From an uncultured Acidobacteriota bacterium (GTDB lineage Bacteria > Acidobacteriota > Thermoanaerobaculia > Multivoradales > JAHEKO01), in the NCBI GenBank assembly GCA_963713825.1, contig CAVQNG010000003.1, positions 553,794-617,793 of the forward strand: 64,000 bases of DNA, written 5' to 3'. Both the position numbers and the translations under genes were made by a program. Shown one piece after another: positions 2,269-33,097 of the stretch (position 1 is its first letter; each line of letters opens with the position of its first letter). The notes beneath the pieces are model-generated. The model was not told the origin of the DNA. It ran no database searches and saw nothing but the letters and a program-made list of their open reading frames with translations.

Positions 2269-4722
2269 ATGAGGCCATCTCCACCCCCCTCGCCCTCCCT
2301 GACTCAGGCCGAGCATTGGTTCAGAATCTTAGCTGAAACCATGCCGGTGGCCATCTTCGTCCACCGCGAGAAACTGCTCTATGTAAACCCGGCCGCCGAG
2401 GCGATGACCGGGTACTCGGCCCCCGAGTTGATGGACATGGGCTTGCACGATCTAGCCAAGCCTCTGTCCACCAGCGATAACGGGTCCACGGCACGCTCTC
2501 TTCCCGAAGACGAAGCAGAAATCTGGAAACTCCGCCGCAAGGACGGGCAGGAGCGCTGGATTCGGCTGACCTCCGGATACGTCGAGCTCGACTGGCAGCC
2601 AGCCACCCTGGTCACGGCCTTCGACGTGACCGTCCAGGAGCAGTCGGCCATCGCGCTCCACGACGTTCGGCAGCGGCTTGCATTTGCCCAACAGGCTGCC
2701 CGGTCGGTGACCTGGGAATGGGACCCCGACAACGACGCCCTGACAACGTCTGAGCTCATCGATCAGGTTTTTGGTTTGCCCCTGCACGACCAGATCACCA
2801 GTGGTCGCGGATTCCTGGAGCTCGTTCACCCGGAGGATCAACCGAGTCTGGAACAAGCGCTGCTGCGCCTGATCAAAGGCGAGGACGAGAACCTGTCTGT
2901 CGACATCCGCTGCCTGTCGCCTCGCGGCGAGATCCGTTGGCTGGCCGAGAGAGCGGTCGCGATGCGCCATCCGTCGGGTCGCGTGCAGCGGGTCATTGGC
3001 GTCGCGCACGACATTACCGAGCGAAAGATCGCTGAGAACGCCCTATTCCAGGAAAAGGAACGGGCCTTTGTCACGCTAGCCTCGATCGCCGATGGGGTCA
3101 TTCGGACCGATGCCCGGGGCATCATCGACTACCTCAACCCAGTCGCCCAGAAGCTCACGGGGTGGACCCTCGAGGAGGCGTACGGCCAAGAGGCCGAGGC
3201 GGTCTATCGAGTGGTCGACGAGGCGACCGGTAAGAAGGTCCTCGACCCGGTCCACCACTGCCTGGAAGAGCGCCGGGAGGTCGCCTTCCTCGGCCAACGT
3301 CTCCTGGTCCGCAGGGATGGAAGCACGTTTCCCATCCATGACTCGGCCGCACCGATTCGCAACCAGGAAGGCAAGGTCATCGGCTCGATCCTGGTCTTCA
3401 AAGACCTGACCCAGGTGCGTCGCGTGGAAGACGAAATGGAGCACCTGGCCAGCCACGACCCGCTGACCGGCCTGATCAATCGTCGCGAGTTCGAGCGCCA
3501 GCTCCGTCAGACCTTGCAGGCTCGCGACGGACTGGGTGGCAGACACGCACTGTGTCAGCTGGATCTCGACGCGTTCAAGTTGGTGAACGAGACCTGTGGC
3601 CACACCGCGGGGGACCAGTTGATCCGGAAAATCGCCTCGGTCATCGAGGACCGGGTCCGACAACAGGACGTCCTGGCGCGCCTCGGTGGCGACGAGTTCG
3701 GCATCCTCTTTCGAGACTGTCCCTCGGAGGAAGCTGAGAAGCGCGCCAAGGAGATCGGCGAAGCCATACACAGCTTTCGCTTCCATTGGGGCGGCCGCAC
3801 CTTCACCAACCGGGTCAGCGGCGGTTTGGCACCGCTTTCCACCTCACACTCCGGGGCGGACGCGCTGCTGAGTGCCGCCGATGCTGCCTGTTTCGTGGCT
3901 AAAGACAAAGGCGGTGGAACCATCCACATCTATCAGCCTGGCGACCGCGAGATTGCCGAACGGTATGGCGAGATGCAGTGGATCTCACGCCTCCAAAAGG
4001 CCCTCGACGAGGACCGCTTCAGGCTCTATCACCAGATCATCAAACCGCTTGGCGCGAGCAATAGCGAACCGCCCTTGAGCGAGCTCTTCATTCGATTGAT
4101 CGACGAGGAGGGCAAGCTCGTCTATCCGGGATCTTTCATCCCTGCAGCCGAGCGGTACGGGTTGATTCCAACAATCGACCGCTGGGTCCTGCGCACCGCT
4201 CTGCATCTGCTGGCGGACGGCGGCAAAACCGTCATCGCTGACAACAGCCGCTTTGCCATCAACCTCTCGGGTCTCAGCCTCGGTGCCGAAGGCTTTCTCG
4301 ACTTCGTCGTCGATGAGCTCGACAAGACCAGGATTCCACCCGACCGGGTCTTCTTCGAAATCACGGAGACCTCCGCCATCGCCAATCTGCCAACGGCCAT
4401 GCGCTTCATCTCGGTGTTGAAGGGCATGGGTTGCCGCTTCGTACTGGACGATTTCGGGCAGGGCTTAAGCTCGTTCGGCTATCTGAAGAATCTCCCCCTG
4501 GACTTCCTCAAGATCGACGGCGGCTTCGTGAGAGAAATGGTCGCCGACCCGATCCAGGCGGCGCTCGTGGCTTCGATCCACGAGATTGGCGAAGTGATGG
4601 GCCTTGGCACCATTGCCGAGTCGGTCGAAGACGAAGCTACACTCGAGGCGCTGCGCCAGATCGGAGTCGATTACGTTCAGGGGTACCTTTTCCAGCGGCC
4701 ACGGCCGCTGAGCAAAAGCTAG
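2269..4722 (+). CDS. PAS-PAS-GGDEF-EAL signalling protein (diguanylate cyclase/phosphodiesterase)
   Basis: Two PAS blocks, RLGGDEFGILF (GGDEF) and EAL-domain motifs (FEITETSAIAN, DDFGQG, KIDGGFV). Confidence 0.9.
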   Translation: MRPSPPPSPSLTQAEHWFRILAETMPVAIFVHREKLLYVNPAAEAMTGYSAPELMDMGLHDLAKPLSTSDNGSTARSLPEDEAEIWKLRRKDGQERWIRLTSGYVELDWQPATLVTAFDVTVQEQSAIALHDVRQRLAFAQQAARSVTWEWDPDNDALTTSELIDQVFGLPLHDQITSGRGFLELVHPEDQPSLEQALLRLIKGEDENLSVDIRCLSPRGEIRWLAERAVAMRHPSGRVQRVIGVAHDITERKIAENALFQEKERAFVTLASIADGVIRTDARGIIDYLNPVAQKLTGWTLEEAYGQEAEAVYRVVDEATGKKVLDPVHHCLEERREVAFLGQRLLVRRDGSTFPIHDSAAPIRNQEGKVIGSILVFKDLTQVRRVEDEMEHLASHDPLTGLINRREFERQLRQTLQARDGLGGRHALCQLDLDAFKLVNETCGHTAGDQLIRKIASVIEDRVRQQDVLARLGGDEFGILFRDCPSEEAEKRAKEIGEAIHSFRFHWGGRTFTNRVSGGLAPLSTSHSGADALLSAADAACFVAKDKGGGTIHIYQPGDREIAERYGEMQWISRLQKALDEDRFRLYHQIIKPLGASNSEPPLSELFIRLIDEEGKLVYPGSFIPAAERYGLIPTIDRWVLRTALHLLADGGKTVIADNSRFAINLSGLSLGAEGFLDFVVDELDKTRIPPDRVFFEITETSAIANLPTAMRFISVLKGMGCRFVLDDFGQGLSSFGYLKNLPLDFLKIDGGFVREMVADPIQAALVASIHEIGEVMGLGTIAESVEDEATLEALRQIGVDYVQGYLFQRPRPLSKS

Positions 4723-4870
4723 TGACTCTCGAGCCGACCGACACCCCTGTACCTCGGCCCAGCAGAGGTCTGACCTGCAGTCTTGCTGATATATTGAAAG
4801 TCTCCGAAACGGCGGCCGGTTCGGGCCCCGTGAGCCCGAAGTCCGACCAATAGAAGAAAGGCCAAATCCG

Positions 4871-6718
4871 ATGAGATTTACCTCGCCCCAAAAAGCTCCG
4901 CCTACCTCGAACCCGAAATTGCTGGCCTGGGTCGAGAGAGTCATCGACCTCTGCAACCCGGGCAAGGTCTGGTGGTGTGATGGATCGACCGAGGAGTATG
5001 ACGAGTTGGCCCAGATCATGACCGAGACTGGAACGGCTCGATGGCTGGACCAGGAGTTGCGTCCCAATTCGCTCTATGTGCGCTCAGATCCGGCCGATGT
5101 GGCCCGCGTCGAAGACCGCACATTCATCTGTTCCCAGCGTCATGAGGATGCTGGACCGACGAACAACTGGGGTGATCCTGCGGAGATGAAGGCCCACCTG
5201 CGAGGCCTCTACGACAGCTGTATGGAAGGCAGGACGATGTTTGTCATTCCCTACTCCATGGGCCCCATCGGCAGCCCCATCGCCAGAATCGGCATCGTCA
5301 TTACCGACTCGCCCTACGTCGTCTGCAACATGCACATCATGGCTCGTGTGGGCACGAAGGTCCTGGAGGCACTCGGCGACGGTGAAGACTTCGTTCGCGG
5401 GATCCACTCGGTGGGATACCCCTTGGACAGCCAGAAGAAGCCCGATCAGCCCTGGCCCTGTAACGCCGACAACAAATACATCTGCCACTTTCCCGAGACC
5501 CGGGAGATCTGGTCCTACGGCTCCGGCTACGGCGGCAACGCTCTGCTCGGCAAGAAGTGCCACGCGCTGCGCATCGCCTCGGTCCAAGCGCGCGATGAAG
5601 GTTGGCTGGCCGAGCACATGCTGATTCTCAAGCTCACCAACCCGCAAGGGCAATCCAAGTTCGTCGCGGCGGCCTTCCCATCAGCCTGCGGCAAGACCAA
5701 TCTCGCGATGATGAATCCCACGCTGCCGGGCTGGAAAGTGGAGACCGTGGGCGACGACATCGCCTGGATGAAGTTCGGTGACGACGGCCGGCTCTACGCC
5801 ATCAATCCCGAGGCCGGCTTCTTCGGTGTAGCACCCGGCACCAGCATGCACTCGAACCCGAATGCCATGCTGTCGCTGGCCAAGAACAGCATCTTCACCA
5901 ACTGCGCCCTGACTCGGGAAGGTGACGTCTATTGGGAGGACATGCTAGACGAGAAGCCTGCCTTCCTCGTCGACTGGCTGCGCCGCCCATGGACATCGGA
6001 AAGCAAGCGGTCGGCCGCCCATCCCAACGCCCGTTTCACCGCTCCGGCCAGTCAGTGCCCAGTCATCGCGGACGAGTGGGAGGATCCGGCCGGAGTGCCG
6101 ATCGACGCCATTCTCTTCGGTGGACGCCGGGCAAAGGTCGTGCCACTGGTGACCGAGGCCTTGGGTTGGGAGCACGGCACCTTCCTGGGATCGATCATGG
6201 CGTCGGAAAAGACAGCCGCCGCCTCGGGCAGAGTTGGCGTCGTACGCCGAGATCCCATGGCCATGCTGCCGTTCTGCGGCTACCACATGGGTGACTACTT
6301 CGCCCACTGGCTCGAAGTCGGAGCCAAAGGGGGTGCCGAAGGCAAGAGTGAATGGGGATCGATGCCGCGGATCTTCTACGTCAACTGGTTCCGCAAGGAT
6401 GAGGACGGCAACTTCCTGTGGCCCGGCTTCGGTGAGAACAGTCGCGTTCTCAAGTGGGTCTTCGAGCGCTGCAACGACGAGGGCGATGTCCAGGAGAGCT
6501 TCATCGGCCTCCATCCGACCGCCGGTGGTCTGGACCTGGAAGGTCTCGACATCTCACAGGAGGACCTCGATCAGCTACTCGCAGTCGATGCCGAAGACTG
6601 GCGGCGAGAGGTCACGCTGCTGCACGACCACTACTTCCAGTTCGGTGATCACCTGCCGAAGGCCCTCGCCGATCAGCTGGCCGAGCTCGAGAGCGTGCTC
6701 AAGGCGATGACGGACTGA
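4871..6718 (+). CDS. pckG: Phosphoenolpyruvate carboxykinase (GTP)
   Basis: Full-length match to GTP-PEPCK architecture (N-terminal RFTSPQ..., kinase motifs [35 protein letters not shown]). Confidence 0.95.
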
Positions 6719-6797
6719 CTCGACGTGGCCTGGCCTCCAGGTCACTTGTGAATCAACGAACGACCCAATTGCGATACGTTGAGCGAGGAGAACCAAC

Positions 6798-8426
6798 GTG
6801 GACATCGAAGGTAGCAAGGTACTCGTCCTGGGCGGCTATGGCCTGGTGGGGATGGCGGTCTGCCGGGAGTTGTTGGAGCACAAGCCGCGAGAGATCCAGA
6901 TCCACAGCCTGCGGCAGGAAGAATCGGCAGAGGCTCGTGAGCTGCTGACGCCGTTTGCGGAAGGCGTCAAGCTCTCGATCTCGAGTGGCGACATCTTCGG
7001 ACTTGCCGAAGAAGCCTCCAGAATAGAGCGCATCGCGGCTCAGCTGAGCCCCCTTCGCGACTCGGATTGGGGAAGGTTCCTGCTGTACCGGTTGCTGGTC
7101 GATGGCAAGCCGGACATCGTGATCGATTCCGTCAACACCGCGACTGGCATCGCTTACAGGGACGTCTATTCGGCCTCGGCAAAGGTGCTGAAAAGCCTGG
7201 AAGCCGGCAGCTCGCAGTGCGATCAGGTCGAGGATCTGCTCGAAGCCCTCTATGTGCCGCGACTGATCCGCCACATGCAGCTCCTGTATGGAGGCATGAT
7301 CGACGCCGGTACTCGTGCCTATTTCAAGGTGGGGACCAGCGGCACGGGTGGCATGGGCCTCAATGTTCCCTACACCCATTCCGAAGAGAAGCCGAGCCGT
7401 GTTCTGCTCTCCAAGAGCGCCATGGCGGGAGCCCAGTCCATGTTGCTGTTTCTCATGGCCCGCACGCCGGGAGCTCCCATCACCAAGGAGATCAAGCCGG
7501 CGGCCGCTATCGCCTGGAAGAAGATCGACCACGGGCCCATCTACCGTGGACGAAAGCCCATCTACATCATGGAGGCCACCCCCCAGACCCTGGGCGAAAC
7601 CTTCTCAACCAACGATCCGACGGCAGCCAAGGCCACCGAGAGCATTCTCGAGACGGCCTACATCGATACCGGTGAGAACGGCATCTTCAGCGTCGAGGAG
7701 TTCGCGATGCTCACCACGTCTCGACAGATGGAGTTCGTGACGCCCGAAGAGATCGCTCAGTACCTCATCTTCGAGATCGGCGGGGGCAACACGGGGCACG
7801 ACGTCATCAACGCACTGGACAACGCGGTACTGGGTCCCACCTATCGGGCCGGTCTCATGCGCCATTGGGCTCTGGAACGAATGATGGAGTTCGAAGCGCA
7901 GGGCAAAACCAAGAGCGTCGCTTTCGAGATGCTGGGGCCGCCACGCAACACCAAGCTGCTCTTCGAGGCTCACCTCCTCCGAGAGGCGTTCGTCACGATG
8001 ACGGCTGTTCGCGAAGCGACCCCGGACGAAGTTGTCGAGAAGATAGAAACGATGCTTCGGGAAGAGCCGCGGCTTGCCAACGAAGTGGTCTCGGTTGGTA
8101 TTCCCATCCTCTTGTCTTCAGGCGAGATCCTGCGGGGCCAGGAGGTCATCGTGCCAGCCGAGGCGGACCACGAGCCGATCACCCCCGAGAAGCTGGAAGC
8201 CTGGGTGCACGACGGGTGGGTCGACTTGCGGCGCGAGAACTGCGCCAGTTGGATCGATCGGATGCAGCGTATCCACGACGACACGGCGGCCATTCCCAAG
8301 GACGACACCTCGAGTCGCCATTTGCGGAATGTCAGGTTCTGGGACGAGGAGAAGAGGATTCAGCCCGGCAAGATCCTGGGGTGGATTCTCTCAGTCGAGG
8401 AGCACGGCGCCCGCTTCAAGCACTGA
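6798..8426 (+). CDS. Uncharacterised 542-aa protein with N-terminal Rossmann NAD(P)-binding fold
   Basis: GTG start with GAGGAG RBS 7 nt upstream. VLVLGGYGLVG glycine-rich dinucleotide-binding motif. The rest matches no family I recognise. Same strand, 80 nt downstream of pckG. Confidence 0.7.
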   Translation: MDIEGSKVLVLGGYGLVGMAVCRELLEHKPREIQIHSLRQEESAEARELLTPFAEGVKLSISSGDIFGLAEEASRIERIAAQLSPLRDSDWGRFLLYRLLVDGKPDIVIDSVNTATGIAYRDVYSASAKVLKSLEAGSSQCDQVEDLLEALYVPRLIRHMQLLYGGMIDAGTRAYFKVGTSGTGGMGLNVPYTHSEEKPSRVLLSKSAMAGAQSMLLFLMARTPGAPITKEIKPAAAIAWKKIDHGPIYRGRKPIYIMEATPQTLGETFSTNDPTAAKATESILETAYIDTGENGIFSVEEFAMLTTSRQMEFVTPEEIAQYLIFEIGGGNTGHDVINALDNAVLGPTYRAGLMRHWALERMMEFEAQGKTKSVAFEMLGPPRNTKLLFEAHLLREAFVTMTAVREATPDEVVEKIETMLREEPRLANEVVSVGIPILLSSGEILRGQEVIVPAEADHEPITPEKLEAWVHDGWVDLRRENCASWIDRMQRIHDDTAAIPKDDTSSRHLRNVRFWDEEKRIQPGKILGWILSVEEHGARFKH

Positions 8427-9943: not shown

Positions 9944-12900
9944 TCAGGGATTCACGAGCTTCACCCAATTGCGCATTGCACCCAAACTGCAGCCGAACTT
10001 CTCGTGGCCTTTGCCCAGATGCTGCGCCTCGATGATCTGCTCGCAAGAGCAGCCCCCTGTGTCACCCACCGTGAAGAAATCGGTGGGGCCACTCTGGAGC
10101 CGCCTCTGGTTACCACGGCCACCGGGGGCCGTCGTATCGAACACCCCGTCCTCATCCACCAGCGCGTACCGATTGACTCCCAGACGATCCGTCGGTACCG
10201 ACTCCGGAATCACCGTCGCCGGACAGACATCCACGTCATCGGGCACCCCGTCGTTGTCAGCATCGCTGGCCACGAAGAGAACAAGCCCGTCGTGATCGGA
10301 TGAGCGCAGGGGCGTCGTGTCGTCGTTGATCAGATCGACGAAGGCGTCGGCGTTGCCACGACCGAACTCCAGACCAGCCAGGAAGTCGTCCAACCCTTCA
10401 CTCGTCAGCGCATGGTCGAGGGCTTGACCGTTCCCAGTGAAGATGTAGGAGTAACGTTCCGCCTGATCCAGTTTCGCTGTCTGATTCGTCAGATCGGGCT
10501 CCACCAGATCAGCGCATGGGTTCGTGTCGCAGACGAGATTGTCGGCTGGCTCGAAGTCACCCACGATCTGGCCGACTGCGTCGACGTACCCGTCGGTGAA
10601 TTCAAAAGCGTTGTAGTCACCGATCACCACCAGGTGCACTTCAGGGTTCGCCGACTGCAGGGCCTGGACCTTCTCGGCAATGGACTGGGCCTGTTCGTAG
10701 CGCTTCTGCCTTACCCTCTCGCCACCGCTTGGATCATCGATCCCACCCAGGGAACGATTGTGGACCGTCATGACCGCAATGGAGAACGACCCAAACTCGA
10801 GCTCGAAAGCACCCTCGAGTAGCAAAGGTGGACGATCGTGCAGTAGCGAGCCGTCATAACTCAAGATCTCGTCCTCGCCGAGTTGGGTGATCTGGTCAAT
10901 CGTCACTGTGTCACGCACCATGAAGCCGACATCGATGCCGCCAACGTCGTTGCCCTCGATCAGGATCGGCGTGTAGATCACAGACGAATCCTCGAAAGCG
11001 ATGTCCACGGCCAGGTCCTCGAGGACCTCGATTTTCTCCGCCTCCTGGACAGCCAAGACATCGGGGGCATCGAGAACGTCGAGGATGTAGTCGACAAACT
11101 TGGCCTTCCGTCCGAAGTACTCGGCATTGTCGAAGAAACGCAACATGTTCAAGCTGCCCACTGTAAATTCTCCTGCCGCGCGCGCTCTGACCGGGCGCAA
11201 CACATCCGGCACCGGCCCCACCGACATCATCTTGGGTACAACCTTGTATCGACCGAAGGTGAAGTTCAGGGGGCCATAGCCCGAAATCGCCTGGCCGGCG
11301 AATACGGGGTCGGAGATGCCATCCAGGCCATCCGTGTCGACGTCGAAGACTTCGGGGTTTCCATCCCAGACGGGAAGATCTGATAGGCCCGGAAAGATGA
11401 TGCCGGGCTCTCGGAAGGGCCGCGGATTATCGACAACGAGACTGACCTCGCCGAACCGATTCGTCGGCCCTGAAGCGATGCCATCGAAGCTGACCAGCAT
11501 ACCCTCGAATCGCTCGAGATCCGGAACCGGAAACGGCTGGTCCGAAGGTGTCGTCGCATCGAACGGAGTTACTGTAGGCAGGGGTTCGCCGCCCCCCAGG
11601 ATGTCCACAGTTGGCGAGTCCGTGATCTCCGTCAGTTCGAAGTACTCCTGCACCCGCCCAATGACTCGTACGCGGTCTCCAATAGAGACCATTGGTGGGT
11701 CCACGCCCGTGTAGACGTAGATACCGTCCGAGGTATAGGGATCATCATCGCTGTCTGCGTCAGGTGTCTGCATGTAAAAGCTGCGAAAGGCCACTGCTGT
11801 GACCACGTTTTCGGTTGTCTTGACTTCCATGCCCTCATAGGGCGAGTAGAGGCCATCGCCCTGGATCTCCCAGATCTCCACCGTCGGGGGTCCCGGCGGT
11901 GGCTCGACTCCAGAGGTGACCATGAGGTTCTGAAAGGCGATGGCCTCCGAGCCACCATCGGTATTCGCCGTCAGGATCAGGGTGAGCGTTGAGCCGGTGC
12001 CCGTGAGCGGCGCGTAGAACGGGGCCATGTCATTGTTCAGCAGGTCTCCGTTCACCAGCATCGGGTCACTTAGGGTGACGATCGCACCGCCCTCCATCGT
12101 GTAGTCCTGCGAGGCATCCTCGTCGATCGAGCTCTGAAACGCCGTCTGTACCGCGCCACCGTCGATGCTGTAGCTCCAGTTAAAGAAATCATTCGCCGCC
12201 TCGAAGTCCCCCATCGCTCCCATGTCGATCGACAGCCCGAGATCCGACGCACCATAGATGTCGAAGACCCAGGTCGCAACTACGTCACGACCCGAGGTGT
12301 CGCCATTATTCGTGTCGACAATCCCGAAGAACTCGTCCGTATTCCCTGTCTTGATGATGCCGAGCGTATCCCCCGGGAAGGAGCCCGCAGAGTCGTCCAC
12401 CACCGCAAAAGGAATCGACGCCGATACTCCCCGCTGGAACTTGTTGAAACCATCCCCGGCAGAGGTGAACGGAATTGCCGGGTCGTCCGTAAACGACAAC
12501 AGGTTCTGCGACGCCGAGCTCACCATGTCAAAAGCGATGACTGTCGGTGGCGGTGGTGGCCCGACTCCCGCGGTGATGACGAGGTTCTGAAAGGCGATCG
12601 CCTCCGAGCCACCATCGGTGTTCGCCGTCAGGACCAACGTCAGCTGCGAACCGGTTCCCGAGAGAGCCGTGAAAAACGGGGTCAGGTTATTCGTCAGCAA
12701 CACCCCATTCATCAACATCGGATCACTTAGGGTGACGATCGCACCGCCCTCCATGGTGTAGTCCTGCGAGGCATCCTCGTCGATCGAGCTCTGAAACGCC
12801 GTCACTGCCGGACTGCCGTCGATGCTGTAGCTCCAGTTGAAGAAATCATTCGCCGCCTCGAAGTCCCCCATCGCTCCCATGTCGATCGACAGCCCGAGAT

Positions 12901-28702: not shown

Positions 28703-28931
28703 TGAAGTGTGGAAACCGAGGTTTCATTGCAGGGAGATCAACAGCTGACGCGGTGCCGTAGCGACCGCTTGCCCACCGCCAGACGATCTTCAATGCCATC
28801 AGGCATGCGCAGGGGGTGTCCTTCGGAGGGACACCCCTTTTCTTATCTTCCACCCGAACGGCCCCGAAAGGTCTGCGCCGACTGGGCGGTGGAAGAGTCT
28901 CTTTTCGAATTCGTGGGGGAAACAAGGGTCC

Positions 28932-29666
28932 ATGGGTGACGAGCTCAAGATCATCGTCGAGCTGCAAGGTGCGATCGACGAACTGAAGGCGGCGGAAGAC
29001 CTCCTCGCCGGCATCCCGGACTGGATGCAGGAGTTGCACGAGGAGCACAGTCGGCAGCAGGCCGAAATGGACGGACTCCGGGCTGCACTGGAGGAGGCCG
29101 AGCAGGCCAAACGGCTAGCCGACACAGAGATCAGTGACCTGCAGACCAAGGTCAAGCATTTCCAAGAGCAGATCGGCATGGTCCGTAACCAGCGTGAGTA
29201 CGGTGCCCTGCTGCAGGAAATCGACACTGCCAAGGAACAGATCAGCGGCACTGAGGAGCGGGACCTGGCGGCTATGGAGCAGGGCGACGAAGCCCAACGG
29301 TTGCTGGACGAGCGCAAAGACGCATTTCAGGAGCTCGATGATCGCTACCAGCAGGAGCTCCAGAAATGGGAGGGGCAAAAGCCCGAGGTGGCCCGCAGAG
29401 CGGAAGAGCTCCGCCAGCAAGTGGCAGAGCTCGAGGGGAAGGTGCCGAAGGCAATCCTCGCCGTCTTCGAGCGCACTCGCCTGCGCTTTGGCGGCAACGC
29501 GATGGCCCTGGTCATGGAAGTGGAACGTAAGGGACCCCGCATCTGGCACTGCGGCGCCTGCAACTACCGTGTCCGCCCCCAGACCGTCGTCTCGATCCAG
29601 GCTGAGAACATCGAGACCTGTGACAGCTGCAGACGCATTCTCCACATCGAAGGTGATGTCGGTTGA
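28932..29666 (+). CDS. COG1579-type coiled-coil protein with C-terminal C4 zinc ribbon
   Basis: Long coiled coil, then C-terminal CGACNYRVRPQ...CDSCRRIL. Confidence 0.8.
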   Translation: MGDELKIIVELQGAIDELKAAEDLLAGIPDWMQELHEEHSRQQAEMDGLRAALEEAEQAKRLADTEISDLQTKVKHFQEQIGMVRNQREYGALLQEIDTAKEQISGTEERDLAAMEQGDEAQRLLDERKDAFQELDDRYQQELQKWEGQKPEVARRAEELRQQVAELEGKVPKAILAVFERTRLRFGGNAMALVMEVERKGPRIWHCGACNYRVRPQTVVSIQAENIETCDSCRRILHIEGDVG

Positions 29667-30115
29667 CCTCTCCTGCAACGCCGAGTGGCCGTGCCTGGAT
29701 CGATGGCGCGTCCCGGGGGAATCCTGGCGACGCCGGATTCGGAGTCTTCCTCGAGACGGATCGAACGCCTGAGGAGATCGTTGGATATCTAGGCAAAGCC
29801 ACGAACAATGTGGCCGAGTATGCGGCGCTGATCGCCGTCCTCACACTGGCCGCTGATCGGGGGATGAAGAAGCTCGTCGTCTACAGCGATAGCCAACTTC
29901 TCGTGCGGCAGGTCAGCGGTGCCTATCGAGTCAAGGCACCTCACCTGGTGCCCATTTTTCTGCAGGCGCTGAAGCTTCGACAGACGATCCCCGATTTCAC
30001 CATCGAGCACGTGGCCCGCGAAGAAAACAAAGAGGCCGACCGCTTGGCCAATCAGGCGATCGATCAGCGAGCCGAGCTGCCTTCCTGGTTGGAGTTTGAA
30101 GTTCCGATCCAATGA
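29663..30115 (+). CDS. RNase H (type 1) domain protein
   Basis: GASRGNPGDAGFG, NNVAEYAALIAVL, VYSDSQLLV and D-containing C-terminal motifs. 4-nt overlap with the upstream gene. Confidence 0.8.
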   Translation: MTSPATPSGRAWIDGASRGNPGDAGFGVFLETDRTPEEIVGYLGKATNNVAEYAALIAVLTLAADRGMKKLVVYSDSQLLVRQVSGAYRVKAPHLVPIFLQALKLRQTIPDFTIEHVAREENKEADRLANQAIDQRAELPSWLEFEVPIQ

Positions 30116-30819
30116 CAACTGTACCCACCGTCGCCGACCGTGTCCGTGGCATTCGCCAGCGCATCGCTGCAGCCTGCGATCGCTGTGGCCGAGACCCCGC
30201 GGAAGTGACTCTGCTGGGCGCCAGCAAGAGCCAGCCTCTAGAACGCATGCAAGAGGCCTGGGCCGCGGGAGTCGAGGTCTTTGGAGAGAACCGGGTCCAG
30301 GAGGCCCTGGCCAAGATGCCCAGTCTCCCAGCCGGAATCGATTGGCATCTGATCGGACCGCTGCAGACCAACAAGGTCAAGAAAGTCGTGCCGCGATTCT
30401 CGACTGTCCACGCCATCGACCGGATCAAGCTGGCCCATGCCCTCGACAAGGAGGCCCAAAGGTCAGAGCGCACCATCGACGGTTTCCTCGAAGTGAATCT
30501 CGGTGGTGAAGAGACCAAGCACGGCTTTCAGCCCGACGATGTGGTGAACGCAGCCGAGCAACTCGCCGCCTTGCAGTCCGTGCGCCTGGTCGGTCTCATG
30601 GCAATTCCGCCAGTCGAGAGCGAAGAAGCGGCGATTCGCGGCTGGTTTCGACAATTGCGAAGTCTTCGCGACGCTCTGCGCCCAGGGCTCGGCTGGCAGG
30701 AATCGGACGGCTACCTCTCCATGGGCATGAGTCAGGACTTCGAGGTCGCCATCGAAGAAGGTGCGACCCATGTGAGAATCGGCACGGCCCTGTTCGGTCC
30801 TCGCGAGATGCGACCGTAG
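30112..30819 (+). CDS. yggS: YggS-family PLP-binding homeostasis protein
   Basis: LLGASKSQP, VFGENRVQE, HLIGPLQTNK, MGMSQDFEVAIEEGATHVRIGTALFG. Confidence 0.9.
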   Translation: MTTVPTVADRVRGIRQRIAAACDRCGRDPAEVTLLGASKSQPLERMQEAWAAGVEVFGENRVQEALAKMPSLPAGIDWHLIGPLQTNKVKKVVPRFSTVHAIDRIKLAHALDKEAQRSERTIDGFLEVNLGGEETKHGFQPDDVVNAAEQLAALQSVRLVGLMAIPPVESEEAAIRGWFRQLRSLRDALRPGLGWQESDGYLSMGMSQDFEVAIEEGATHVRIGTALFGPREMRP

Positions 30820-30861
30820 CCGCCCGCAGATCCCCGGAGTTCATCGACCCCTCTGGACCTC

Positions 30862-31164
30862 ATGCCGAAGTCAGTTCCGCTCGCTGCAACGACCCGCAGA
30901 CTCCTGGCGCACTACAGCGAGAGCAGCGTAGAGCTCCCACAACACCAGGCCTTCTTGATCGGCCGTCTCTTCGAGGAAGGCGATACTCCAGATCTCCGTT
31001 GGCTGACAGACAACGTCAGCGAAGAGGAGCTCTCGGGCTGGCTTCGGACGTACGGAGGTCGCTCCCTCTCGCAACGCTCGCTGGCCTTCTGGGCGACCCT
31101 GCTGAGAGATCCACAAGCCATCGCCGACCGGCCCGCAGCCAATGAGGACCTATGGCCCCTTTGA
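30862..31164 (+). CDS. Small protein (100 aa), putative cognate partner/antitoxin of the downstream AbiEii-like nucleotidyltransferase
   Basis: ORF overlaps the downstream gene by 13 nt. No recognisable domain by eye. Confidence 0.45.
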   Translation: MPKSVPLAATTRRLLAHYSESSVELPQHQAFLIGRLFEEGDTPDLRWLTDNVSEEELSGWLRTYGGRSLSQRSLAFWATLLRDPQAIADRPAANEDLWPL

Positions 31165-31829
31165 CAATTCGCCATCCCGAGAGCCTGTCACCCAAGAGCA
31201 CGGCTCTTCTTTCTGAACTGGCAAGTCTCGAGTGGGCCACGGAGACTTATCTGGCAGGCTCGGCAGCCCTCGCTCTCTACTTGGGACATCGTCCCGTTCG
31301 CGACCTCGATCTCATGAGCCCTGTGCTGCGGCTGCGCGCCGTCGACCGGCGCGACATCCTGCAGGACCTGCTGAGTGTGGATCAAGCCTGCCGAGTGGAA
31401 ACGGCTCGCGATGGGTTCCTCTACGCCCGGATGAGCGGAGAAGTCGCCCTCAGGCTCTTCTACTACCCCTACCCACAAGTCGACGCCGTAACCGAGCACC
31501 AGGGACTCACGGTGGCTTCACCCATCGATCTCGGACTCATGAAGCTGGGGGCCATCATCAGTCGCGGCACTTGTCGGGATTTCGTCGACCTTTATCTACT
31601 CTGCCAGAACCTTCCCTTGGCAGAGCTGCTGGAGGCGTCGGTCCACAAATTCGGACATGTGAGGGATTTCCCCATCCAGGCCCTCAAAGGACTCAGTGAC
31701 CTCTCGCAGACGACAGGTGAGCCCATGCCTATCCTGTCCAGGCCTGTTGATTGGGAGGATGTGGTTGCCTGGACGAGAGAGCAAGTCGAGACCCTGGGCC
31801 GCGAACGCATAGGATTGGAACTGCCATGA
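31152..31829 (+). CDS. Nucleotidyltransferase of the AbiEii/AbiGii (DUF1814-like) toxin family
   Basis: N-terminal LAGSAALALYLGHRPVRDLDLM resembles the AbiEii GGTAL...R.S.DLD motif. About 225 aa. Stop overlaps the hutI start (ATGA). Confidence 0.55.
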   Translation: MAPLTIRHPESLSPKSTALLSELASLEWATETYLAGSAALALYLGHRPVRDLDLMSPVLRLRAVDRRDILQDLLSVDQACRVETARDGFLYARMSGEVALRLFYYPYPQVDAVTEHQGLTVASPIDLGLMKLGAIISRGTCRDFVDLYLLCQNLPLAELLEASVHKFGHVRDFPIQALKGLSDLSQTTGEPMPILSRPVDWEDVVAWTREQVETLGRERIGLELP

Positions 31830-33097
31830 GCGAACTGTTGATCACCAACCTGTCCGAAATCGCCACACCGATTGGTAACGAGGCTCTGACCGGAGTCGAT
31901 CAAGGCAAGGTTCGTCGCTTGTCAGGGGTCGAAGTCTTGTGCCGAGACGAAGAGATCGCAGGCGTCGGGACGAGGGACGAGATCGAGCGCCAAATGGGCT
32001 CCCTGGAGGCGGTCGAGCGACTCGATGCCGATGGCGGCACCCTGGTGCCGGGGTTCGTGGACCCGCACACCCACCTGCCCTGGGCGGGCAGTCGCGAGGC
32101 AGAGTTCGCTCAGCGCCTGGCGGGTAAGACCTACATGGAGATCGCCGCCGAGGGCGGGGGAATACTGTCCACCGTGCGCGCCACGCGTGAGGCTTCGGAA
32201 CCGGACCTCGCCGAGAGAGTCCTGGATCGCCTCGACCTGATGCTCACCCATGGCACGACTACCGCCGAGGCCAAGAGTGGCTACGGTCTGACCCTCGACG
32301 ACGAGTTGAAGCAACTGCGGGCAATCCGCCACGCCTCCGAGGAGCATCCGGTCGACCTGATACCGACGCTTCTCGCGGCTCATGAGACTCCGCCCGAGTA
32401 TCGCCAACAGAGGGACCGCTATCTCGACATCGTCTGCCAGGAGATCATCCCCGCCACCTCCGAGGCTGGGCTCGCCCAGTTCTGCGATGTCTTCTGTGAG
32501 GAGGGCGTCTTCACGGCCGAGGAATCCCACCGCGTGCTGACAGCCGGTGCAGAGAATGGCCTGGCCCCGAGACTTCACGCCGACGAGTTTGTCGACTCAG
32601 GCGGCGCCGAGTTGGCGGCCGAGCTCAAGGCCCTGTCGGCCGATCACCTCACCGCAGTCTCTCCGGCCGGCGTCGAGGCGATGGCAGCCACCGGCGTTAC
32701 GGCGGTTCTGCTGCCGGGAACCAGCTTCTTCCTCATGAAGCACAAATACGCACCGGCTCGTAGACTCCTCGAGGCGGGCGTGCCGATTGCCCTGGCCACC
32801 GACTGTAATCCGGGATCCTCCTTCACCGAGTCGGTGCCGATGGTCTTCGTACTGGCGGTTTACGAGTTGGGGCTATCGATCGAAGAGGCCTTGACCGCGG
32901 CGACACTGAATGCCGCCTGCTGCCTGGACCTCGGTGAGCGCATCGGATCGATCGAAGTCGGCAAGCAGGCCGACCTGGTAGTTCTCGCCGCACCGAACCT
33001 GCTGCACCTCGCCTACCACTACGGCATCAACCTGGTGAGCGCCGTCGTCAAGAGCGGCAAAGTCGTGCATCAGGCCAGCAACTACAAGCACCTATAA
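31826..33097 (+). CDS. hutI: Imidazolonepropionase. The track start at 31751 is upstream; the ATG at 31826 is preferred.
   Basis: GFVDPHTHLPWAGSREAEFAQRLAGKTYMEIAAEGGGILSTV and amidohydrolase metal ligands (HADE...DCNPGSS). Confidence 0.9.
   Translation: MSELLITNLSEIATPIGNEALTGVDQGKVRRLSGVEVLCRDEEIAGVGTRDEIERQMGSLEAVERLDADGGTLVPGFVDPHTHLPWAGSREAEFAQRLAGKTYMEIAAEGGGILSTVRATREASEPDLAERVLDRLDLMLTHGTTTAEAKSGYGLTLDDELKQLRAIRHASEEHPVDLIPTLLAAHETPPEYRQQRDRYLDIVCQEIIPATSEAGLAQFCDVFCEEGVFTAEESHRVLTAGAENGLAPRLHADEFVDSGGAELAAELKALSADHLTAVSPAGVEAMAATGVTAVLLPGTSFFLMKHKYAPARRLLEAGVPIALATDCNPGSSFTESVPMVFVLAVYELGLSIEEALTAATLNAACCLDLGERIGSIEVGKQADLVVLAAPNLLHLAYHYGINLVSAVVKSGKVVHQASNYKHL

Follow-up and report, generated by a model that had tools for sequence, protein, structure and literature searches.

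A putative toxin–antitoxin-like gene pair resident between yggS and hutI in a Thermoanaerobaculia lineage, coding for a DUF6922 protein and a short DUF1814 nucleotidyltransferase

What are two small, overlapping genes doing between yggS and hutI in the housekeeping operon of an uncultured Acidobacteriota bacterium? The locus lies in a stretch of 64,000 nucleotides (assembly GCA_963713825.1, contig CAVQNG010000003.1, positions 553,794 to 617,793; Thermoanaerobaculia), hereafter the window. Both genes are encoded on its forward strand and begin with ATG: the first (30862..31164) specifies a 100-residue protein, a putative antitoxin or regulator that appears to be a divergent DUF6922 member, and the second (31152..31829) a 225-residue nucleotidyltransferase (NTase) of the DUF1814/AbiEii family, a putative MenT-like toxin. 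A preliminary description made from the sequence had taken them for a candidate AbiE-like toxin–antitoxin or abortive-infection module, inserted at this site as a mobile element and possibly carrying hutI along. The reading that we favor, with a little more belief than doubt, is that of a toxin–antitoxin (TA)-like module, composed of the DUF6922 partner and the short DUF1814 NTase, which has become fixed in the operon and is vertically inherited, and whose toxicity and target we infer. Neither open reading frame (ORF) is a chance one: searches recovered 1210 homologues for the NTase and 778 for its partner, uniform in length, and the start codons are supported because the N-termini of both proteins are conserved.

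The family assignment of the second protein is clear at the level of Pfam, where it scores 35.5 bits on AbiEii/DUF1814 (PF08843; cut-off 22.5 bits; E = 1.3e-8); all 54 sampled wider relatives match the same family (best E = 2.1e-19). Its AlphaFold (AF2) model has a predicted local distance difference test score (pLDDT) of 92.9, and the modeled order of beta1, helix (residues 36 to 44), loop and beta2 (residues 52 to 56) fits the NTase fold. The closest folds found by Foldseek in the PDB are MenT1 (8an5/8an4, E = 6e-6, template modeling (TM) score 0.5–0.59) and then JHP933 (4o8s/4ok0), the matches to the two together spanning E values of 6e-6 to 4e-5 and TM scores of 0.47–0.59; MenT3 and MenT4 fall outside the top 50. 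The AbiEii-type NTase of the preliminary description is thus borne out. At the sequence level, JHP933 is retrieved by a profile of the wider family (E = 1.3e-4), in an alignment that matches up motifs I, III and IV. Searches of PDB sequences with the NTase alone or with the clade profile returned nothing but a chance PCNA match, and MenT1 was never matched with the NTase or the family profiles. The best 120 of the 1210 homologues are 61–94% identical to the window protein and 220–244 residues long, and belong to Thermoanaerobaculia wherever the source gives a name. Of representative clusters, an exhaustive phmmer search retrieves 1620 at E <= 1e-3, a number that falls to 20 at E <= 1e-30; the Thermoanaerobaculia clade is therefore, as judged by sequence similarity, a tight group within a large family of 200–225-residue NTases that are 30–40% identical. 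A scan of the genome collection with exact search patterns for the NTase yielded 2 loci.

Sequence analysis reveals a well-preserved NTase active site. Motif I (31257..31310, plus strand) reads G36-S37 ... R47-P48-V49-R50-D51-L52-D53, in which D51 and D53 are the predicted metal-binding residues; it lies within the segment LAGSAALALYLGHRPVRDLDLM, residues 34 to 55, which the preliminary description had quoted and which is present in the sequence as given. None of the 121 clade sequences departs from G36, S37 or D53, and position 51 holds Asp in 117 of them and Glu in 4. Motifs III and IV (31542..31589, plus strand) comprise K131 (31542-31544) and R142-D143-F144-V145-D146 (31575-31589). K131 and D146 are present in every clade sequence and D143 in 120 of the 121, and the same positions are kept in the outgroup representatives (n = 111), with K in 108, D143 in 110 and D146 in 109. 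These residues correspond to the published catalytic sets of MenT1 (D41/D43, K137, D152) and MenT3 (D80, K189, D211) (PMC10435456, PMC7450476, PMC11375011, bioRxiv 10.64898/2026.01.19.700257), of which K137/D152 in MenT1 and K189/D211 in MenT3 are essential for toxicity. The 15-residue spacing from K131 to D146 equals that of MenT1 K137/D152 and of MenT4 K171/D186 (PMC10435456), and K131, D143 and D146 align with the KL..A....R..RDLFDL stretch of JHP933. The clade also bears marks of its own: the GGT of the outgroup motif I has become GSA, and a VETARDG block, invariant within the clade, has been gained.

Three deep-branching members of the syntenic clade depart from this pattern at the first Asp of the D-x-D pair. 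In one locus (L002, 5956-6684) D51 is replaced by Ser (RSLD), and in two further sequences (P0247 and P0248) by Gly (RGLD/VGLD). All three keep K131 and RDxxD, and they are perhaps catalytically dead NTases.

The residue that is missing from the clade as a whole is a regulatory one. In characterized members of the family the phospho-acceptor stands two residues before the first Asp, as MenT1 T39, MenT3 S78 and AbiEii T65 (PMC10435456, PMC7450476, PMC11375011, bioRxiv 10.64898/2026.01.19.700257), in an [S/T]-x-D-x-D spacing (PMC10435456, PMC11375011) that in AbiEii follows from the residues R63-S64-T65 (bioRxiv 10.64898/2026.01.19.700257). Phosphorylation of this residue underlies type VII-style neutralization. 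The corresponding position of the R-x-[S/T]-x-D-x-D pattern is V49 in the window (31296-31298, plus strand). Val occupies it in 106 of the 121 clade sequences and Ile in the other 15, Ser or Thr in none, whereas 106 of the 111 outgroup representatives have Ser. On this alignment, the acceptor for antitoxin-induced auto-phosphorylation is absent from the whole fixed clade and is kept in the mobile relatives and in JHP933. What such a loss may mean can be gauged from mutants: MenT3 S78A and AbiEii T65A are still toxic but are no longer neutralized, and MenT1 T39A is still blocked by MenA1 through binding (bioRxiv 10.64898/2026.01.19.700257).

The partner is best understood through its relatives. 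Among 23 members of its family, 22 match DUF6922 at E <= 0.1 (best E = 2.4e-6). The window protein aligns over its full length with the partners of two outgroup loci (L007 and L009), which themselves score 49.6 and 36.5 bits against DUF6922, and a hidden Markov model (HMM) built from the clade's partners finds both of these proteins with E values of 1e-27 to 1e-29. At the level of the family, these profile comparisons identify the partner as a divergent DUF6922 protein and not an AbiEi. Nearly all of its 778 homologues among the matches listed by the profile search are 92–104 residues long. A structure model built from a 52-sequence alignment (pLDDT 81) is a small helical bundle, with no sequence match in the PDB and no significant fold match in either structure library; 8an5 is not among its fold matches, and no likeness to MenA1 was found. 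AbiEi models (Pfam, PADLOC) and helix-turn-helix (HTH) domains gave no match in the partner, in keeping with the earlier remark that it is an unusually short partner without a DNA-binding motif. Neither DUF6922 nor PF21956 is mentioned in the full-text literature searched.

Outside the clade the same two families recur together. Two outgroup members were looked at, one with an NTase 31% identical to that of the window (L007/L008) and one at 40% from Chloroflexota (L009/L010); in each, a DUF6922 gene for a protein of 92–98 residues stands directly upstream of the NTase gene, in neighborhoods unrelated to yggS/hutI. Viral contigs of IMG/VR supply 11 distant NTases that are 24–29% identical to the window protein (search pattern HRxSxD[LF]D), and in 8 of these 11 loci a DUF6922-like ORF lies directly upstream of the NTase. 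In all four of the IMG/VR loci tested by Pfam, the upstream gene encodes a fusion of an XRE-type HTH_3 domain with DUF6922 (164–174 residues, DUF6922 68–82 bits). Two further loci (L104 and L105) have a 116-residue upstream ORF instead of the fusion, which in L104 lacks a Pfam match and is weakly matched (E ~9e-4) by our own DUF6922 HMM. A DNA-binding domain fused to the domain that partners the toxin is the classic antitoxin layout; the family therefore resembles a TA module, in which DUF6922 looks like the toxin-facing domain. Its variable context and its occurrence on viral contigs are suggestive of TA-like mobility, which the Thermoanaerobaculia clade appears to lack. About 3.5 kb upstream of the pair, L007 also encodes an N6/N4 methyltransferase, an EcoO109I-type restriction enzyme and a 100-residue NTP_transf_2 (MNT-like) protein (1-1314), and this region may be a defense neighborhood.

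Is the pair in the window a recent arrival? Genomic neighborhood analysis argues otherwise. Thirteen other loci carry the pair at this same yggS–hutI site, with NTase identities as low as 50%. Ten of these loci (L001 to L006, L091 to L093 and L094), fetched via the NTase or the partner and including contigs of 1.4 to 7.7 Mb, share the order Zn-ribbon (CT398-like)–(RNase H)–yggS–(divIVA)–partner–NTase–hutI, genes in brackets not being present in all of them. Identities to the window proteins are 50–94% for the NTase, 53–78% for YggS and 60–87% for HutI. The NTase of L005 is fragmented and gives 37% by tblastn; in this locus, on a 2.07-Mb contig, yggS and the NTase gene are both split (4678-5417, 6279-6950), and because yggS is split there too, the breaks are probably frameshift errors of the assembly and unlikely to mark real pseudogenes. 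An independent sample of loci was anchored on HutI and is unbiased as to the pair. It adds carriers (L013, L016 and L018) and two empty sites: in L015 the yggS stop and the hutI start overlap (ATGA), and in L014 the two genes are 55 nucleotides apart with nothing between them. More distant outgroups (L025 and L028) have yggS–divIVA–hutI. The preliminary description was therefore right that the pair is an insertion between yggS and hutI. Its suggestion that hutI travels with the module fails, the adjacency of yggS and hutI existing without the pair.

Neighbor-joining trees with bootstraps were built for HutI, for YggS, HutI and the Zn-ribbon protein combined (804 columns) and for the NTase. In both the HutI tree and the combined tree, the empty loci L014 and L015 nest in a clade of pair carriers with 100% bootstrap support, and L002, itself a carrier, branches outside it. 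Wherever nodes are supported, the tree of the NTase matches that of HutI, and pairwise distances in the two proteins are correlated (r = 0.76). Substitution patterns point the same way. Between the window and L092 the ratio of nonsynonymous to synonymous substitution rates (dN/dS) is 0.24 for the NTase and 0.46 for the partner, with 0.12–0.46 for the flanking genes and dS of 0.05–0.12 for all genes; between the window and L004 it is 0.18 and 0.29, with 0.09–0.15 for the flanks and dS of ~0.8–1.1 throughout. Both genes are under purifying selection. The guanine–cytosine (GC) content of the pair and its GC3 equal those of the neighboring genes, no relatives of the NTase were found by tblastn in plasmid and phage collections, and the gene tables of the relatives' loci list no flanking mobility genes. 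Read most simply, the pair was inserted once, long ago, between divIVA/yggS and hutI in an ancestor of this Thermoanaerobaculia lineage, was then passed on vertically, and was later lost cleanly, both genes together, on one or two occasions. A recent horizontal insertion, which the preliminary description had envisaged as a mobile defense island, is rejected, dS, trees and GC all matching the flanks. The opposite case that it had considered, universal conservation at a syntenic core position, stands in part: the lineage keeps the syntenic position, yet not every member has the pair, and a universal core gene is rejected on the empty sites of L014 and L015.

These observations can be joined into a mechanism. 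With D51/D53, K131 and D143/D146 in place, the NTase would add nucleotides to an RNA 3' end, as expected from its homology to MenT1, MenT3, MenT4 and AbiEii; of the possible targets the tRNA CCA end is the likeliest, in which case aminoacylation would be blocked and translation slowed. The translationally coupled DUF6922 protein would bind the NTase and hold it inactive. Since the acceptor Ser/Thr is Val or Ile throughout the clade, the auto-phosphorylation switch of the MenT1/MenT3/AbiEii type is presumed inoperable here, which would leave control to stoichiometric binding, as with MenA1 and MenT1 T39A, together with transcription of the host operon. Because the partner has no HTH, the pair is probably not self-regulated and would be expressed from the host operon.

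Several points weigh against a TA-like module. Taken alone, the partner scores 14.5 bits against DUF6922 (PF21956; E = 0.025), its sole Pfam match, where the gathering threshold is 27 bits. The PADLOC AbiEii models match the NTase partially and weakly (E 0.0024–0.027, 12–15 bits), and no NCBIfam model is matched by either protein. The phospho-acceptor was placed by the spacing of the linear motif together with the predicted secondary structure, and not by an inspected superposition. The missing first catalytic Asp of L002, P0247 and P0248 suggests that catalysis is not universally retained, and toxicity, the tRNA target and the binding of the NTase by its partner are homology-based predictions. 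Because branching in the crown clade is poorly resolved (bootstraps of 10–59%), the number of losses is uncertain. Finally, selfish TA modules seldom stay for so long at one fixed site among housekeeping genes, and that the pair has neither its own promoter-like site nor its own DNA-binding domain is likewise unusual; both features fit a domesticated, possibly non-toxic role equally well.

Domestication is accordingly the alternative that survives best, and it is a possibility to be taken seriously even though we think it rather unlikely. In its general form the NTase would be a housekeeping or regulatory enzyme acting on RNA or another substrate, DUF6922 would be its specificity or regulatory subunit, and both would be co-expressed with the operon. 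The syntenic position is fixed over a deep divergence (HutI down to 60%, NTase down to 50% identity), purifying selection acts on the pair about as strongly as on the genes for YggS, RNase H and the Zn-ribbon protein, only 42 nucleotides without a promoter-like site separate the partner gene from yggS, no HTH is present, and the changes in motif I (GGT to GSA, Ser to Val/Ile) and the invariant VETARDG block are clade-wide, all of which such a role would explain. Yet the joint clean loss in L014 and L015 implies that the pair is dispensable, and a paired loss is what would be expected of a TA module. The residues required for MenT toxicity are all retained, TA hallmarks are evident in the wider family (variable context, viral contigs, an HTH-fused partner), and no data suggest an alternative substrate. 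A more specific form, held still more tentatively, is a domesticated toxin module that has kept its catalysis and lost both its transcriptional autoregulation (no HTH) and its auto-phosphorylation off-switch; it would act lineage-wide as a host-controlled RNA 3'-end nucleotidyltransferase, for example as a translation brake linked to the state of growth or division, with DUF6922 as its stoichiometric regulator.

That the pair is a decaying TA relic without present function is improbable in the extreme. Decay would account for the loss of the first catalytic Asp in the basal L002, P0247 and P0248, for the fragmented NTase of L005 and for the absence of the pair from L014 and L015, but not for the dN/dS of 0.18–0.24 in the NTase and 0.29–0.46 in the partner, nor for the 65 invariant columns in a 33-sequence alignment and the uniform lengths of more than 100 homologues; the splits in L005, where yggS is broken as well, are probably frameshift errors. 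A recently inserted mobile AbiE-type abortive-infection or defense module, possibly carrying or regulating hutI, agrees with the AbiEii match in Pfam, the empty yggS–hutI sites of relatives and the distant relatives on viral contigs, but it is already largely refuted and scarcely credible, given the missing AbiEi, the shared site in 13 other loci, the equal dS, congruent trees and normal GC, the lack of flanking mobility genes and of any plasmid, phage or PHROGs match (the last for both proteins), and a yggS–hutI adjacency that is older than the pair and persists without it.

Among characterized systems, the TA-like pair would work most like MenAT1 of Mycobacterium tuberculosis (Rv0078B/Rv0078A), with a short toxin, a small partner that does not bind DNA, and neutralization by binding. 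Both have a short DUF1814 NTase of ~190–225 residues, MenT1 being the best fold match, with the same D-x-D, K and D catalytic set and the same 15-residue spacing from K to D. The partner is in each case a small protein lacking a DNA-binding domain, and its gene lies upstream of the toxin gene, which it overlaps or abuts; the binding-only block of MenT1 T39A by MenA1 is the mode proposed here. In E. coli, MenT1 shows no toxicity. The partners, however, are unrelated: MenA1 has 68 residues and forms a single extended helix (PMC11375011), whereas the window encodes a 100-residue, folded, helical DUF6922 protein. Moreover, MenT1 T39 is replaced by V/I, identity is ~15%, and the pair of the window sits inside a housekeeping operon.

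The resemblance to other relatives is more partial. AbiE (Streptococcus agalactiae/Lactococcus), MenAT3 and MenAT4 share the PF08843 toxin, the four NTase motifs and the order of upstream partner and downstream toxin, but their partners AbiEi, MenA3 and MenA4 are COG5340 proteins with a winged HTH that induce auto-phosphorylation of T65 or S78; the pair described here has neither an AbiEi homologue nor a Ser/Thr acceptor, and its toxin is shorter. JHP933 of Helicobacter pylori (4o8s/4ok0, 232 residues) is the one solved structure to which a sequence search led and the second-best fold, and differs in keeping the Ser in R-F-S-E-D-L-D. The HTH_3–DUF6922 modules of IMG/VR (L095 to L103) combine the same two families with a short NTase, in the same order and orientation and with the same motifs; they differ in that the partner has an N-terminal XRE-type HTH (164–174 residues), the contigs are predicted to be viral or prophage, and Ser stands at the acceptor position. 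As far as the sequences can tell, the pair is thus not AbiE in the strict sense, there being no AbiEi, and not of MenAT1 type, its partner being unrelated to MenA1. The AbiE label of the preliminary description is to that extent not supported, the PADLOC AbiEii models reaching only E = 0.002–0.03.

DUF1814 NTases (AbiEii, MenT1–4) are known as widespread toxins, and recent work suggests that they share an active-site Ser/Thr auto-phosphorylation induced by the antitoxin. What is new here, against the literature searched, is the DUF6922 partner family. It goes with a large sub-family of short NTases, by itself or as a fusion with an XRE-type HTH, in no fewer than two bacterial phyla as well as on viral and metagenomic contigs. 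If the domesticated reading were true, DUF6922 would be a fifth family of DUF1814 partners and the system a TA module turned to core physiology. The natural loss of the switch with the catalytic residues kept offers a ready-made test of whether binding alone controls such toxins, and a long-lived chromosomal TA-like copy that is occasionally and cleanly lost bears on whether chromosomal TA modules gain host functions.

The layout of the locus is that of a compact operon (28932..33097, plus strand), recognized from its overlapping and closely spaced starts and stops and holding the Zn-ribbon gene, RNase H, yggS, the pair and hutI. The CT398-like Zn-ribbon gene comes first (28932-29666, plus strand), followed by the RNase H gene (29663-30115, plus strand) and yggS (30112-30819, plus strand; TIGR00044, 198 bits), the starts and stops of these three overlapping by 4 nucleotides; the partner gene begins 42 nucleotides after yggS, and hutI (31826-33097, plus strand; TIGR01224 equivalog, 465 bits) follows the pair. 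Read directly from the sequence, the partner stop and the NTase start overlap by 13 nucleotides (31152..31164, plus strand), and the NTase TGA (31827-31829) overlaps the hutI ATG (31826-31828) as ATGA (31826..31829, plus strand); the coordinates of the ORFs and both overlaps are as first described. The 13-nucleotide overlap is kept in L003, L004, L005, L006 and L091 to L093 and also in the outgroup locus L007 (NTase 31% identical), implying a probable translational coupling of partner and NTase. The ATGA overlap recurs in L001, L004 and L091 to L094, and the NTase and hutI are at least 100 nucleotides apart in L002, L003 and L006. Between 28400 and 33400 the sole strong terminator-like hairpin (28811-28839, a 13-bp stem followed by a T-run) lies 5' of the Zn-ribbon gene, and no sigma-70-like promoter site was found. 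This suggests, if weakly, because the promoter scan uses an E. coli-type consensus, that the pair shares one transcript with the operon genes. The order Zn-ribbon–RNase H–yggS after the hairpin is kept in L004 and L091 to L093 and partly in L001 to L006.

The neighborhood varies in smaller ways. A divIVA gene lies between yggS and the pair in L001 (5175-5678), L003 (5208-5717), L005, L006 (5495-6004) and L094 (2-364), and between yggS and hutI in L025 and L028, which do not carry the pair. The window, L004, L091 to L093, L002 and L018 have none at the yggS/pair position, and tblastn (E <= 1e-5) finds no divIVA homologue anywhere in the window. A 267-residue ORF of L001 was considered as a divIVA–partner fusion and rejected, being a spurious upstream extension with divIVA in another frame. 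In L003, from a 7.66-Mb genome, a Fic/Fic_N gene and, next to it, an Unstab_antitox gene (10891-12304) stand ~4 kb downstream of the syntenic block; this is a separate TA-like pair, absent from the window. The region upstream of hutI is rearranged in L011, where a 167-residue ORF (588-1091), ~3 kb upstream of hutI, carries a different NTase-like motif, VVGGVAATLEGAPVTTLDLDIL, and is unrelated to the AbiEii-type gene. As for hutI, the earlier remark that it stands apart from other hut genes holds as far as hutU is concerned, tblastn finding no hutU homologue in the window (hutH was not queried). Across the lineage this imidazolonepropionase-like gene is tied to yggS/divIVA (L014, L015, L025, L028) instead of belonging to a hut operon; the customary hutU–hutI arrangement is seen in L019, a more distant relative.

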